DNA of 64,000 nt from Leucoraja ocellata (Eukaryota): positions 620,001 to 684,000 of the forward strand of contig JAWMAR010000361.1 in assembly GCA_036785375.1 (NCBI GenBank), read 5' to 3'. Numbering within the stretch: the first letter of the stretch is position 1; each line of letters starts with the position of its first letter. The notes beneath the pieces are model-generated. The model was not told the DNA's origin, did not search any database, and saw only the letters and a program-made list of their open reading frames with translations. Made by a program: the position numbers and the translations under genes. This document shows, piece by piece, positions 8,441-59,669 of the stretch.

Positions 8441-8565
8441 GTACACAACAATGCTGGAGAAACTCAGCGGGTGCAGCAGCATCTATGATGCTGCTGCACC
8501 CGCTGAGTTTCTCCAGCATTTTTGTGTACCTTCGATTTTCCAGCATCTGCAGTTCTTTCTTAAAC
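8441..8565. mobile_element. Fold-back Penelope-like mini-element (young subfamily)
   Basis: About 44-bp inverted arms (8440-8483 and 8487-8530) with a 3-nt loop. TSD ACTTTCC(G/T)CTGGTG at 8427-8440 and 8566-8579. Confidence 0.88.
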
Positions 8566-9169
8566 ACTTTCCTCTGGTGCTAGTCTTCTGCTGTGACATT
8601 CCCAATGAAGGGGTTTCAGCCCCACCCCTGCAGTCGGCACTGACCACCACAAGTGAATTGGCACAGAACAGGAGGAAAGGCAAGCAGAAATCCGGTACAG
8701 TCTCACCTGTGGACAGGCCAGGAATGACTGTAGGGCTCAGGTAGACCATGGCAACCTTCCTTTACAGTGGAAAGTTCAGAAGGAAATAACCTTTGATGTA
8801 TTTGTGACCGATACATCTAAATGCCAAACGCAGCCATGCACACTTGCATTCCTCTGCTGCATCTATGTTTGGTTCACAATGGGAAAGTGATCTAGAAGAC
8901 TCACCTGTACTAAACCGTCAGTTGCCGGGCAGATCACTGATGATGAGATATTTTATAATATATTCTTATAATCACTTTACTGATGGTGCGGAAGGAGGAT
9001 CCTGGTAAGATGTGGCCATACCCGACAGTACATTGTAAATTGTAACGAGTGTGTAGTATAGTACCAGTGTATGGGGTGATCGCTGGGCGGTGCAGACTCG
9101 GTGGGCCGAAGGGCCTGTTTCCGTACTGTATCTCTAAACTAAACTAAACTAAACATGAACTAAAATTAA

Positions 9170-25153: not shown

Positions 25154-25330
25154 TGCAGCAGCATCTATGGAGCGAAGGAAATAGGCAACGTTTCGGCCCG
25201 AAACCCTTCCGGGTTTCGGCCCAAAACGTTGCCTATTTCCTTCAGGGTTTCGGCCCGAAACATTGCCTATTTCCTTCGCTCCATAGATGCTGCTGCACCC
25301 GCTGAGTTTCTCCAGCACTTTTGTCCACCT
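25154..25330. mobile_element. Fold-back Penelope-like mini-element with 2 x 34-bp central duplication
   Basis: Inverted arms; tandem units at 25207-25240 and 25241-25274. Confidence 0.85.
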
Positions 25331-29155: not shown

Positions 29156-29351
29156 TCTTCTTCTTTTCGTGTTCATCTTGTTACAAATGTTGACCTCGCT
29201 GTCATCGTCTGTCCTGAAAAGGACGCGAGCTGCCAGCGACAATCAGTGGGAGCCATCACCGGTCGCGATAGATGATGGTGGTGGCTGAATTAGCTCAGGA
29301 TACTTCCAGTTTCCAGCCCCGTGACATGGACACTTCTGCTATGTGGGACCC
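29156..29351 (-). mobile_element. 5'-truncated non-LTR retroelement 3' end with (GAA)n tail, nested in a SINE
   Basis: 11-bp TSD TACAACTTACT at 29145-29155 and 29352-29362. The host SINE at about 29110-29525 is collinear on both sides. Confidence 0.8.
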
Positions 29352-31025
29352 TACAACTTACTAAGGGCAATTAACCTACAAATCTGTACATCTTTAGAGT
29401 GTGGGAGTGTGCGCACCCGGAGAAAACCCACGCAGTCACAGGGTGACAGTACAATCTCCGTATAGACAGCATCCGTAGTCAGGATCGAACCCGGGTCTCT
29501 GGTGCTGTAAGGCAGCGATTCTTATATTTTTCTCTCTCCAGTTCTCTCCGTGGTCTGAAGACTGTTAGTGCATTATTGCTGCCCGACATTGTGCCACGAC
29601 ATTGAACGGACTGTTCACGGGCGTGGAAGCTTTCTGCCTCTAATCACTGGAGCTAAACCCTTGTCAGGGTATCAGTCTGCAGAAAGCTTTTGTCTGAAGA
29701 AAGGTCCTAATTCAAAATGTTGTCTGTCCATTTTCCACCACAAATACCGGCAGACCCATCGAGTTCTTCCGGCATTTCATTTAGCTCAAGGTGTCAGAAT
29801 CCCACTGTTCTATAACAATGCAAGCAGTCAGATTAGAGATTCTGAATCGACACAAAAAGCTGGAGTGACTCAGCGGGCCAGGCAGCATCCCTGAAGAGAA
29901 GGAATGGGAGAAGACCGTACAATTATTAATATACTTTTAATTGATGATAGAGAGGCCAAACTAAAGATTGGAAGAAGTACTTTGATTAAAGTAGGAACTG
30001 AAAAGCCAATTTAAAAAAAACTTGAAACAAAATTATATTTAAAAATCTATGGAATCTATGGGATTTAAAAAGAATTATTCTTTGGAAATCAATGTCCACG
30101 TGTTGAAAAATATTTGGACATGCACATGTATAGGGCAGGTTTAGAGGGATATGGGCCAAATGCATACAGGTAGGACTAGTGTAGATGGGGCATGTTGGTC
30201 GTTGTGGGCAAGTTGGCTGAAGGGCCTGTTTCCATGCTGAATGACACTATGACTCTAATTGGAGTTTTTCAGGACCAGAATAGATGTTCAACATGAATCA
30301 TGGCATGAGATTCAGCACATGCAATATTTTAATTCTTATTTTCAGTTAAGGTAGAGGATAAATAGTTGAAGATTCTGAGAGTTTACAGATTTACCATGAG
30401 TTCCCTTCATGCCCACTGCAACTGCTACTCTTAGAGTAGCAAGAATCAGTGACTGCAATGTCATTAACTGTGCATTTGTAAACGCTAGGAATTGCAATCT
30501 GATTTCTCCCATTGTAACAGTGAACGCTGGTGGTCTTAGAGCAAACTTGGACTATTGCTTCAAATCATCGACGTGACTAGTGCTCAGCAACTCCCCAAAG
30601 CACCATTTTTCAAACTGAAAAATGAAAGTAAATATTACAAATCTAACTTAAATAGGAACTAATTAACTTCTAAAAGATGATCAAAGGCCAAGATTCCATC
30701 TTTAACCTCATCAGAAGGCACTTTATAGAATCAGCTCTTGAGTATAATGGATGAAAAGTATCAAAAGGACTGAATTAAAAAAACTAAATTGGACAGTGCC
30801 CATCTGAGAACATGGAATTACATTTCTGTACATCAAGATAGCAAAGCAGCGGCAAGCGTGACATTTTACCAATGGAGACGGGGGTTACTGCCAATTTGTC
30901 TACAGAAAGGGAAGAACATTACTTTTTAATGGCATGCCTTATTGCTTCATTTAAAGAATGCCAGAGGACACTTCAAGGACTATCAAGCACCCAGTTAGAC
31001 AGAGGCTGACATGCAAAGCACTAAC

Positions 31026-53670: not shown

Positions 53671-53717
53671 AAACCGCTTCTGATTAATTTAGCTGTTTGT
53701 AGGCCAACAGTAGGCCA

Positions 53718-54318
53718 GCTGGGATGTAATGTTAAAATTGTACAAGGCATTGGTGAGACCAATTCTGGAGTATGGTGTACAATTTTGGTCGCCCAATTAT
53801 AGGAAGGATGTCAACAAAATAGAGAGAGTACAGAGGAGATTTACTAGAATGTTGCCTGGGTTTCAACAACTAAGTTACAGAGATAGGTTGAATAAGTTAG
53901 GTCTTTATTCTCTGGAGCGCAGAAGGTTAAGGGGGGACCTGATAGAGGTCTTTAAAATGATGAGAGGGATAGACAGAGTTGATGTGAACAAGCTTTTCCC
54001 TTTGAGAATAGGGAAGATTCAAACAAGAGGACATGACTTCAGAATTAAGGGACAGAGGTTTAGGGGTAATATGAGGGGGAACTTCTTTACTCAGAGAGTG
54101 GTGGCGGTGTGGAATGAGCTTCCAGTGGAAGTGGTGGAGGCGGGTTCATTGGTATCATTTAAAAATAAATTGGATAGGCATATGGATGAGAAGGGAATGG
54201 AGGGTTATGGTATGAGTGCAGGCAGGTGGTACTAAGGGGGAAAAAAATTTGTTCGGCACGGACTTGTAGGGCCGAGATGGCCTGTTTCCGTGCTGTAATT
54301 GTTATATGGTTATATGGT
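53718..54318 (+). mobile_element. HER1-like CR1 LINE 3' fragment (subfamily 2), open ORF2 end
   Basis: ORF 53729-54235 reads LYKALVRPILEYGVQFWSP..RRLRGDLIEVFK..FFTQRVV. The 3' tail resembles the HE1-like SINE tail. Confidence 0.95.
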
Positions 54319-54374: not shown

Positions 54375-55013
54375 GTGTGCAAGAAGGAACTGCAGATGCT
54401 GGAAAATCGAAGGTACACAAAAATGCTGGAGAAACTCAGCGGGCGCAGCAGCATCTATGGAGCGAAGGAAATAGGCAACGTTTCAGGACGAAACCCAAAG
54501 TAAATAGGCAACGTTTCGGGTCGAAACCCAAAGAGTTTCGTCCCGAAACGTTGTATTGTATTGTATTCAAATTTATTGTCATTGTCTCAATTTGAGACAA
54601 CAAAATGAATTTTCCTTACAGGCAGTATCATTAAAAAAATCACAAAAAAAATAAAATAAATAATAAATAAATAATAAAACATATTAAAAATAAAATTGAA
54701 ATTGAATTAAAAAAAAAAAAAAAAGCACAAACACAGAAAGTCCACGACACAACATAACATAAATGGCACCAAGGTGAGGTTGGCACCATAGTCCAGCCAG
54801 CCTACGTTGCCTATTTCCTTCGCTCAACGGGTCAGGCAGCATCTCTGGAGAAAAGGAATAGCTGACGTTTCGGGTTGGAACCCAAGTCTGAAGAAATGTC
54901 CTGACCCAAAACGTCACCTATCCCTTCTGTCCACAGATGCTGCCTGACCCGCTGAGTTACCCCAGCATTTTGTGTCTGTCTTCGGTGTAAGTGCCGGCAG
55001 TTCCTTCCTACAC
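54375..55013. mobile_element. Nested cluster: young fold-back PLE, a 250-bp retroelement tail (54554-54803), and an older fold-back PLE
   Basis: 6-bp TSD ACGTTG at 54548-54553 and 54804-54809 around an insert with a (TATTG)n end. Older hairpin at about 54826-55013. Confidence 0.8.
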
Positions 55014-55218
55014 AAAACTAAATTGGTGTTTCTAGTTCATTTTAAAATTAGAATATAATTAGTTCATCAAAATAGGACATACTAACAAACAGGATTTTTG
55101 TTCGATATACCTGACAGTATCTATTTGTGAAACAATGTAAATTATCCCAGGGTTGTAACATAAGCAAGCAATTGATTAAAATGGAAAACGCAAAGAAACC
55201 TACTTAAAACAAGCCCTG

Positions 55219-55484
55219 GTGCACAAAAAAGCTGGAGAAACTCAGCGGGTGCAGCAGCATCCATGGAGCGAAGGAAATAGGCAACGTTTCGGGCCAAAAC
55301 CCTTTGGGTTTCGGCCCGAAACGTTGCCTATTTCCTTTGGGTTTCGGCCCGAAACGTTGCCTATTTCCTTTGGGTTTCGGCCCGAAACGTTGCCTATTTC
55401 CTTCGCTCCATAGATGCTGCCGCACCCGCTCAGTTTCTCCAGCATTTTTGTGTGCCTTCAATTTTCCAGCATCTGCAGTTCCTT
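55219..55484. mobile_element. Fold-back Penelope-like mini-element with 3 x 33-bp perfect central array
   Basis: Units at 55303-55335, 55336-55368 and 55369-55401. 16-bp TSD CTTAAAACAAGCCCTG at 55203-55218 and 55485-55500. Confidence 0.92.
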
Positions 55485-56845
55485 CTTAAAACAAGCCCTG
55501 ATTTGTTGCAGAAATCTGTTTTCCAACTCTGGTCTGTGTATCCGGGATAGTATTATGAAATATTCACATTAAGAATATAAAGATCTATGTTATATTCCCT
55601 ATTTCACTTGACTATCAAAAATGGAACAGATATCCTAATTTTGCAGCCAATCCTCAAACCATAACCAAAATAAAGGAATGGCAGAAAATGTACACATTAC
55701 ATAGAAATTTCGAAACACTGAGTAGATTATTAATAAAGTCATAACACATTAGAACTTGACATTAAACTCATGTAAAACAAATAAGAGAGAACAATTTGGC
55801 TGCAGGCCATCCTAATTCTTGAATTCCTTTGACAGTTGACGTCCTTATTTCAACATTTCCCAACTCCATTTGTTGATTTTTCCCTTTGTCATTCTAATTT
55901 CCTGTGCTGTCTCTGATCTTCAAAAGCAAATTGATGGTGTTTTCCACTTTTACCCATCCCTCAACCTTCATGTGATCTATATTTAATTCTCTGCTTTTCT
56001 TCCCAGTTTTTCTCTGCTTCTTCTGACCGGTGGCAATGGATTTCCATGGGAATTTCCACACATCCATGTAGTCTCCTGGGTAGATAATACCCAGCATCTG
56101 CAGTAACTTCCTACACACGAGTCTCCTGGGTACTTTCACCCATGGTATTAATATCGTTCCTTTTTACATGCTTATAGATCTGCTGTATAATTCTAATACC
56201 TTCACAGCTGCATTGTGGCGAGATATAGCTGAAAACATGGTACTGCGCCACAGAAGAAAATTGCAGCGATTTAATTATTAGAAGAAAGCCCTCAGTTTTA
56301 AAGGGAAATACCAGTTTCTCAAACTATGTGATGTTGTCATTAAATATTTTTGAGATTTATTCCTTTTGTGCGCTCGGGTTTAATAGACTTCACCATTCTG
56401 TTGGAATTCTGTGTTGATGGAAGTTGGATTTATGAGCTAAGTCCGTTTGCTTGGTACCTCAATGTATTATTCATTGATATTTTGAAATGTGAATAATTTA
56501 TATTGCTGCCGACACCTACCTCTAGGTGATCATTTTGGAAACCCAATCATTAGTTACTTTGTAACTCACACCTGGTCTCCTGTAGCCACCTATGAATAAT
56601 ACATAGATAAATACACTTAAATACAGCTGCTGCTTTGTAATATGCCACACATTAGCATTTCATAGTGAGACGGAATTGGTGAAAAAAAGCACATTTGACA
56701 CAAATGGCTTACAGCTGATAGATTTAAGTCCTCGGCTAGTGTTTGGCAGAGTATGTTTCAACTGACAAGCTTTCTCTATTGTGTTGTGAGGTCACACAAT
56801 TATCCATTATATGAATCTACTTGGAAAAGCTTCTAGAAAGAGTTG

Positions 56846-59143: not shown

Positions 59144-59155
59144 CTGGGCAGTGTT

Positions 59156-59669
59156 TAAGAAGGAACTGCAGATGCTGGAAAATCGAAGGTACACAAAAAA
59201 GCTGGAGAAACTCAGCTGGGTGCAGCAGCATCTATGGAGCGAAGGAAATAGGCAACGTTTTGGGCCGAAACCCTTCTTCAGACTGATCGGGGGGGTGGGG
59301 GGGGGGGGGGGGGGGGGGCGGGGACAAGAAAGGAAAAAGGAGGAGGAGCCCGAAGGCTGGGGATGGGAGGAGACAGCAGGGGGACTGAGGAAGGGGAGGA
59401 GACAGCAAGGACTAACAAAATTGGGAGAATTCGATGTTCATGCCCCCAGGATGCAGACTCCCCAAGCGGAATATGAGGTGCTGTTCCTCCAATTTCCGGT
59501 GTTGCTTGCTGTGGCCATGGAGGAGACCCAGGACAGAGAGGTCGGAGGCAGAGTGGCAGGGGGAGTTGAAGTGCTGAGCCACCGGGAGGTCAGCTTGGTT
59601 ATAGCGGACCAGGCGGAGGTGTTTGGCGAAACGATCGCCCAACCTCCGCTTGGTCTCACCGATATAGAT
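59156..59669 (-). mobile_element. Young Penelope-like element, 5'-truncated (GIY-YIG C-half plus terminal repeat)
   Basis: YIGETKRRLGDRFAKHL..VAQHFN..LEEQHLIFRLG..GMN. 12-bp TSD CTGGGCAGTGTT at 59144-59155 and 59670-59681. Hammerhead core at 59254-59281 with G12 changed to A. Confidence 0.93.

Follow-up and report, generated by a model that had tools for sequence, protein, structure and literature searches.

A hairpin insertion in Leucoraja ocellata suggests nearby chromosomal DNA, and not telomerase-like stuttering, as the likely means by which Penelope-like insertions are completed

EN+ Penelope-like elements (PLEs) are described as carrying a head-to-head inverted, 5′-truncated copy of themselves, a target-site duplication (TSD) and, on one side only, a tail of 30–40 bp (passages in PMC8557442 and PMC3846280). 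In vitro work on Poseidon of Anolis has located two internal RT start sites that bracket the tail, and indicates that both target strands are cut and extended and that ribozyme cleavage is not needed (Frangieh et al. 2024, PMC11167929, in the part that deals with these reactions). How the ends of a PLE are joined, how the inverted structure originates and how intron-containing DNA is moved are stated as open in passages of PMC8557442, PMC3846280 and PMC11167929. Two other systems bear on the locus described here. Excerpts from the literature on non-LTR retrozymes (PMC4209133; bioRxiv 10.64898/2026.07.22.740005) report that retrozyme multimers are enriched at Xenopus chromosome ends, and the relevant section of a study of L1 templated insertions describes templates of <250 bp that lie within 15 bp of the site and are rare (22/3,598; bioRxiv 10.1101/2024.08.27.596794).

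The hairpin insertion and its parent family

We analysed a stretch of 64,000 nucleotides (the window), in which a hairpin insertion occupies positions 55203–55500 and consists of an inverted PLE tail, a TTT junction, 33-bp units and a forward tail, bounded by a 16-bp TSD. The initial annotation had read the locus as an inverted tail, units and a forward tail inside a perfect 16-bp duplication, and this layout is borne out: the duplicated sequence, CTTAAAACAAGCCCTG, is exact, cannot be extended, and occurs in the window only at 55203 (left copy, 55203–55218) and at 55485 (right copy, 55485–55500), where its first 6 bases overlap the end of the PLE tail (TTCTTAAA). Between the two copies, the inverted tail (55219–55302, minus strand) runs from the inner RT start site (site 1, giving a short arm) to the 5′ side of the hammerhead stem II; it is followed by the TTT fold-back junction (55303–55305), a type with 442 exact matches genome-wide that may be a CpG-decayed form of TTC. 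Two extra 33-bp units (55306–55371, plus strand) each comprise stem II, GAAA, the CGTT cleavage triplet, CCTATTTCCTT and T, and are bounded by a CCTT microhomology with the junction. The forward tail (55372–55490, plus strand) begins at stem II, ends at the outer RT start site (site 2, the long arm or PLE 'tail') and carries private variants in common with a daughter insertion described below. Tandem Repeats Finder (TRF) reports a period of 33, 3.1 copies and a 100% match from 55306 on. The array is as perfect as first noted, with one qualification: what reads as its third unit is simply where the forward tail natively begins (the first 32 bp of that arm), and only two units are extra.

The units were also said to be devoid of the CUGANGA box, and we found no CTGAnGA box on either strand of the element. 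A minimal type I hammerhead (CUGAnGA box, stem II, GAAA, NUH) was accordingly rejected as a description of it, the box being missing, and an Rfam scan of the window returned no hammerhead match, only microRNA-type hairpins below gathering scores. The predicted RNA fold of the element has a free energy of −171.4 kcal/mol (z = −22.6; 0/200 shuffles). Its two arms differ at 7/84 sites and its units are identical, which fits a later gain of array units. The joint between flank and arm is present in short-read contigs of X1, X3 and X6 for the left side and of X1, X5 and X6 for the right. Since these independent contigs come from three organisms, the inverted layout is real and predates the divergence of those organisms; the unit number rests on the assembly, as no short-read contig spans the array.

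The same architecture had been noted at 25154 and 54375, and both recurrences stand. At 25154–25324 (plus strand) lies a second stem-II fold-back with a TTCC junction and a TTCA unit (2.1 × 34 bp), which has a sibling core at C361:875843. A third, at 54381–54553 in the opposite orientation (minus strand), has a TTT junction and two units (2.1 × 33 bp), and its short arm is interrupted and resumes near 54804–54825. No TSD was found for these two fold-backs, both of which are truncated or interrupted. The interrupting sequence (54553–54803) is ~250 bp long, has A-rich runs and is accompanied by ACGTTG on both sides. The window also holds an ordinary, de novo fold-back that has another junction and is free of arrays (8442–8567, strand unassigned; 17-bp TSD with 2 mismatches) and, for comparison, an ordinary 5′-truncated PLE end with an intact minimal hammerhead motif (59151–59285, minus strand). 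Elsewhere in it, a 173-aa frame at 53714–54235 belongs to the 3′ end of a LINE-like repeat also present in L067 and has no Pfam match, and there is a weak match to the Rfam CPEB3 (HDV-like) ribozyme at 29283–29362 on the minus strand (24 bits, below gathering score).

The arms of the fold-backs are homologous to the pLTR of a helper with a single ORF encoding RT and, at the C terminus, GIY-YIG. One full pLTR-ORF-pLTR unit (L239) has an intact frame of 1241 aa, and both of its pLTRs have the same tail. The ORF matches RVT_1 (E = 8e-5) and GIY-YIG (E = 0.002), both below Pfam curated cut-offs; a PDB sequence search with it gave no match. It contains a CxxxxCxxC linker compatible with the definition, which we quote from the literature, of a Neptune-type Zn-finger-like linker joining RT to the endonuclease, and by these sequence features the helper is probably a young, Neptune-type PLE. 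Ordinary PLE copies have the CTGAnGA box: the intact minimal hammerhead motif has 25,986 exact matches genome-wide, is evenly spread on contig C1, and in many copies has the ORF end upstream of it. PLE tails end at two sites ~35–40 bp apart, like the two RT start sites of the lizard PLE. Judged by its inverted 5′-truncated copy, one-ended tail and TSD, the element at 55203 is best classified as an EN+ Penelope-like insertion. Ordinary 5′ truncations cluster a few bases from the CTGA box of the ribozyme (L061–L090, and in a 464-kb stretch of C361 around the window), and the pile-up falls directly after a polypyrimidine tract and CAG that resemble a splice acceptor.

A population of fold-backs with inherited cores and reset ends

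Genome-wide there are 10,014 strand matches to the stem-II junction, from which a minimum of 5,007 loci follows; for the array junction the figure is 242. Control patterns read backwards gave 0 matches in all cases. Tabulated across loci, as had been proposed, the junctions are mostly identical, with a TTCC/GGAA spacer in 75 of the first 100 stem-II junctions among the matches listed. We parsed 126 elements from loci that were fetched by pattern, and hence form a biased sample, and could classify both ends of 55. One short and one long arm were present in 46 of these 55 (expected fraction 0.49, p = 1e-7), in both orientations relative to the core. A TSD was found in 30/126 elements; it measured 13–16 bp in 24 of the 30 and 10–18 bp overall. 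After flank-sharing duplicates and unreadable tails had been dropped (n = 45), the same tail type was found on both arms in 33 elements (shuffled fraction 0.28), and 12 were discordant. The tail types of the two arms of the element at 55203 are discordant.

Cores, that is the junction, the unit spacer, marker bases and captured bits, are common to insertions at different sites, and the arm ends are reset each time. The lineage with a GACCC core (442 matches genome-wide) includes 24 elements on 8 contigs with several tail types, the youngest among them, and its marker sits in unit 1 of 42/74 arrays as against 7/172 later units. The cores form local lineages that are re-paired with different helper tails. 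Of the earlier suggestion that a retrozyme-like master copy is itself mobilised, the part concerning inheritance holds, in that junctions are mostly identical and cores with their markers recur at different targets; the cores are not retrozymes, and they form local lineages rather than descending from one master. Copying of a cap, or a fixed RNA 5′ end, was rejected as the origin of the identical junctions, since the junction carries its marker bases and captured pieces along with it and does not occur in ordinary regions.

The arrays have a history of their own. All end at CCTATTTCC(TT), having CCTT(C) in common with the junction. Derived variants are common to later units in 10/35 arrays with at least 3 units, and in two arrays (L152, L171) whole 2- or 4-unit blocks are repeated together with their mutations. 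Duplicates of a single insertion carry 3 and 7 units (L014/L017), 2 and 3 units (L097/L101), and 1 and 3 units (C273/C361); because the unit number differs between duplicates of one insertion, arrays change at the DNA level. Tracing a 14-bp piece in a 59-bp array at C361:558964 yielded nothing beyond a duplicate, on C273, of that locus. Two further kinds of array were noted. Compound elements at C1:20.1–22.5 Mb (L035–L110), with a TTCC core and an AGAAGAG unit, contain 60-bp tandem arrays of the tail of an older PLE subfamily, starting at GAAACGTCA. Array units of ~44 bp that include a CTGAAGA box are present at L207, L208 and L210 (C33) and at L120 and L121 (C6); these amount to minimal ribozyme cores in tandem and fall below the 51 bp quoted for the shortest retrozyme unit.

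Our sole unbiased sample is the 464-kb stretch of C361 around the window, which contains 51 young clusters, including 9 stem-II fold-backs by script (11 by eye). Extra units are present in 8 of the 9, and a further 8 fold-backs with other junctions are all without arrays. The TTT junction accounts for 5 of the 9 stem-II fold-backs here as compared with <9% genome-wide. Outside the window on the same contig, the fold-backs at C361:800959 and C361:803281 are joined at the central palindrome of stem II/GAAA and have 120 bp of left flank, though not the right flank, in common.

Stem-II fold-backs occur in regional, often telomere-near clusters. The first 19.2 Mb of C1, over which intact PLE copies are evenly distributed, contain no stem-II junction (28 expected) and are followed by a dense cluster. 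Of the 81 matches of one unit variant, 47 fall within 2.4 Mb of C1, and within ~3.5 Mb of C23 lie 59 of the 219 matches of a captured 26-mer and 72 of the 442 matches of the GACCC core. Telomeric or subtelomeric ends were found on 7/20 contigs rich in fold-backs and on 0/17 controls (p = 0.009; the control contigs are larger). Segmental duplication is part of the clustering, as 55 elements reduce to 42 flank groups and 20 LINE chimeras include 3 duplicate pairs. GC content was dropped as an explanation, there being little difference between clusters (0.45–0.48) and non-cluster regions (0.39–0.45). A LINE-type 3′ end that contains an internal duplication and a nested fold-back core is present in 123 copies, 59 of them at C23:8.35–11.63 Mb (L299–L318); the copies have variable 5′ truncation and mostly different flanks, a local spread of a second class of retroelement. 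Locality, which PLE fold-backs have in common with this LINE 3′ end carrying a core, may be a property of the region rather than of the PLE mechanism. Among contig ends (L226/L248 on C48, and L246, L253, L257 and L217), C48 terminates in CCCTAA repeats of inward orientation, and a 16-bp telomere-like variant repeat is found at the ends of C25, C106, C119 and C133. At the end of C5 (L242) lies sequence that we take to resemble large-subunit rRNA.

Donors, daughters and the origin of the core

A daughter of the element at 55203 lies 133 kb upstream, at C361:542112–542785, with a 16-bp TSD of its own. It consists of an inverted tail of young type, the TTT core carrying 2 units (3 in the donor), and the right arm of the 55203 element with its private variants, followed by 82 bp of the donor's unique right flank (55491–55572, plus strand; 2 matches genome-wide) and by a 3′ piece of a young PLE that ends at the outer site. 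As this flank occurs twice in the genome and continues only at the 55203 element, the latter is the donor. The ends of the daughter are young-type on both sides, and the left end of the donor differs from them by a one-base indel. An X3 contig matches the flank-to-ORF junction of the daughter exactly over 94 bp, only 24 of them on the ORF side. Unbroken flank contigs in X1, X5 and X6 hint that the daughter is absent there, such contigs being able to show presence only; in short-read contig comparisons the empty-site joint could not be discerned in repeat noise. A donor of the 55203 element itself was not found among the 4 matches of its right-arm type, of which only the daughter is a TTT fold-back.

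Three further pairs were traced. In a 10-kb pair 44 bp of flank were captured in the same orientation, and the daughter has the left-arm variant of its donor; in a 22-kb pair ~600 bp of flank were captured in the opposite orientation, within an 18-bp TSD, and there is then a second switch, to the core that is local to C23; and in a 4-kb pair ~320 bp were captured in the opposite orientation. In the daughters, fresh TSDs of 14–18 bp immediately abut young PLE ends, and between these ends lies the captured unique flank. All four traced donors, which were picked for their unique flank (in a later set, 3/11 candidates were traced), lie in cis, two of them oriented like their daughters and two oppositely, the chance of a donor lying within 133 kb being 8e-5. 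The core very probably derives from a nearby donor.

These findings suggest that Penelope insertions likely end with the copying of nearby chromosomal DNA and not with telomerase-like stuttering. For the element at 55203 we favour, with some reserve, a TSD-bounded PLE insertion in which both nicks primed cDNA on helper RNA and the gap was bridged by copying a nearby older fold-back. The helper protein would nick the two target strands ~15 bp apart, and each 3′ end would prime on helper PLE RNA at one of the two start sites, in a manner that would amount to twin priming. Both cDNAs would halt near the ribozyme, presumably through stalling. The two cDNA ends, being of the same sense, could not anneal to each other, but a nearby older fold-back would be complementary to both, and copying across it would close the gap and hand on the core of the donor (junction and 33-bp array), sometimes together with flank. 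The template for the bridge would likely be chromosomal DNA and, less likely, nascent RNA. The first extra unit may have been seeded at the CCTT(C) microhomology with the junction, and the number of units would later change by DNA slippage.

Other accounts of the core have to be weighed against bridging by nearby DNA. The initial annotation had offered a telomerase-like reiteration, with the RT jumping repeatedly at stem II as it completes the cDNA; on this view every insertion would involve a stall at stem II and several rounds of copying of one 33-nt stretch of RNA. That units begin exactly at stem II, that 5′ truncations accumulate at the ribozyme and that spacers differ between some units speaks for it, and a lineage could owe its first array to an event of this kind. 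A telomerase-type reiterated repeat would consist of fresh units at each event and be free of inherited private variants, whereas here spacers and the marker are inherited, multi-unit blocks are duplicated with shared mutations (L152, L171), and the unit number is not constant among duplicates of a single insertion (3 vs 7, 2 vs 3 and 1 vs 3). Given inherited variants and the change of unit number in duplicates, reiteration by the RT at each insertion is not the general source of arrays; the lack of arrays in the 8 fold-backs of the 464-kb stretch with other junctions, and wide regions full of ordinary copies without arrays, count against it too. We thus regard reiteration as largely refuted in that role and, overall, as highly improbable. 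Alternatively, once inserted, cores might have been passed between adjacent PLE copies through ectopic gene conversion and segmental duplication, in distal regions where recombination is frequent, with no link to new insertions. Consistent with this, flank-sharing duplicates exist, clusters are telomere-near (7/20 vs 0/17 contigs) and arrays change at the DNA level, yet conversion would require an earlier inverted pair at each site and leaves aside the fresh TSDs of 14–18 bp that stand outside young PLE ends enclosing captured unique flank, which makes this account quite improbable. Still less credible, to the point of being negligible, is an artefact of assembling a palindrome: no contig spans the array, but flank–arm junctions recur in independent contigs from three organisms, the arms differ from each other as noted above, thousands of copies with TSDs exist, and the contigs are multi-megabase.

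A non-autonomous RNA deserves more attention, although we consider it unlikely. Read-through transcripts of fold-backs would here be reverse-transcribed in trans by PLE protein, or entered by template switching, near the site of their synthesis, and would bring core and flank to sites in the vicinity. Whichever strand of a fold-back is taken, its end is a sense PLE tail that contains an RT start site, the 10-kb daughter has the left-arm variant of its donor as an RNA copy of that donor would, and LINE chimeras with variable 5′ truncation cluster too; moreover, capture between pLTRs in trans and antisense templates have been proposed for rotifer PLEs (in a passage of PMC3846280). Against this stand the young-type ends on both sides of the 133-kb daughter, which do not reproduce the left end of its donor, the association of a single core with several helper tail types, and donors in both orientations. 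The RT would also need to open a hairpin of −171 kcal/mol, and local hopping, in the literature found and in the portion of PMC12477314 cited here, is described for cut-and-paste transposons and not for RNA intermediates.

If bridging by nearby DNA were general, a wider picture would follow, which we put forward tentatively and with slightly more doubt than belief: Penelope insertions would routinely be closed with nearby chromosomal DNA, the core would be a selfish sequence with neither promoter nor protein that spreads in cis as the best bridge for identical cDNA ends, and the movement of intron-containing sequence would be explained by way of DNA. The selfish-core reading, if true, would amount to local hopping by a by-product of a retroelement and would give a DNA-templated answer to the intron puzzle of PLEs, whose intron retention becomes testable. 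If bridging uses nearby DNA, local duplications on the kb scale, as well as palindromes close to chromosome ends, would arise from a young retroelement family, and families of repeats that are defined by a consensus would in part be an illusion of local copying. With thousands of natural events that carry markers and have nameable donors, the distance, strand and intron content of donors are directly measurable.

Comparison with known systems

The outer anatomy, an inverted tail with a TSD, is known; inheritance of the core and its spread in cis appear to be new, as far as the literature searched can tell. We did not find inherited or locally spreading PLE fold-back cores in the literature, and older Penelope papers and supplements may mention them. 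A MITE has fixed terminal inverted repeats and the fixed short TSD of a transposase family; that class was rejected here, the ends being unequal and reset at each insertion and the TSD measuring 10–18 bp. MITEs and fold-back DNA transposons do have the same short inverted-repeat form, a TSD and local spread (the last described for cut-and-paste transposons in part of PMC12477314), but the ends of the present elements are retroelement start sites of unequal length, with a variable TSD of 13–16 bp, no fixed terminal inverted repeat and no transposase partner. Non-LTR retrozymes are likewise PLE-derived, non-coding and made of tandem units of ribozyme sequence (passages in PMC4209133 and in Li et al. 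2026, bioRxiv 10.64898/2026.07.22.740005), whereas the units here are 33 bp long, are without the CUGAnGA box and lie inside an inverted, TSD-bounded insert with no rolling-circle signature. Assignment to the retrozymes, which needs at least two tandem complete ribozymes, was rejected on account of the missing box.

L1 twin priming and templated insertions, in the section of bioRxiv 10.1101/2024.08.27.596794 cited above, are a small-scale analogue; here the donors are 4–133 kb away and the population, of thousands, is self-renewing. Poseidon of Anolis is alike in its two start sites and in the nicking of both strands, and the helper here has a cysteine linker that is probably of Neptune type (compare the corresponding part of PMC11167929). 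A further close system is the canonical EN+ PLE, for which Craig et al. (2021) and Arkhipova et al. (2013) describe, in the passages concerned, the same inverted arms, TSD, tail at one end and junction palindrome, as well as host DNA captured between pLTRs in trans. In contrast to that description, the core of the elements described here passes from one insertion to the next, with an array that grows; it spreads in cis over distances of kb to Mb, and its regional lineages have donors that can be named.
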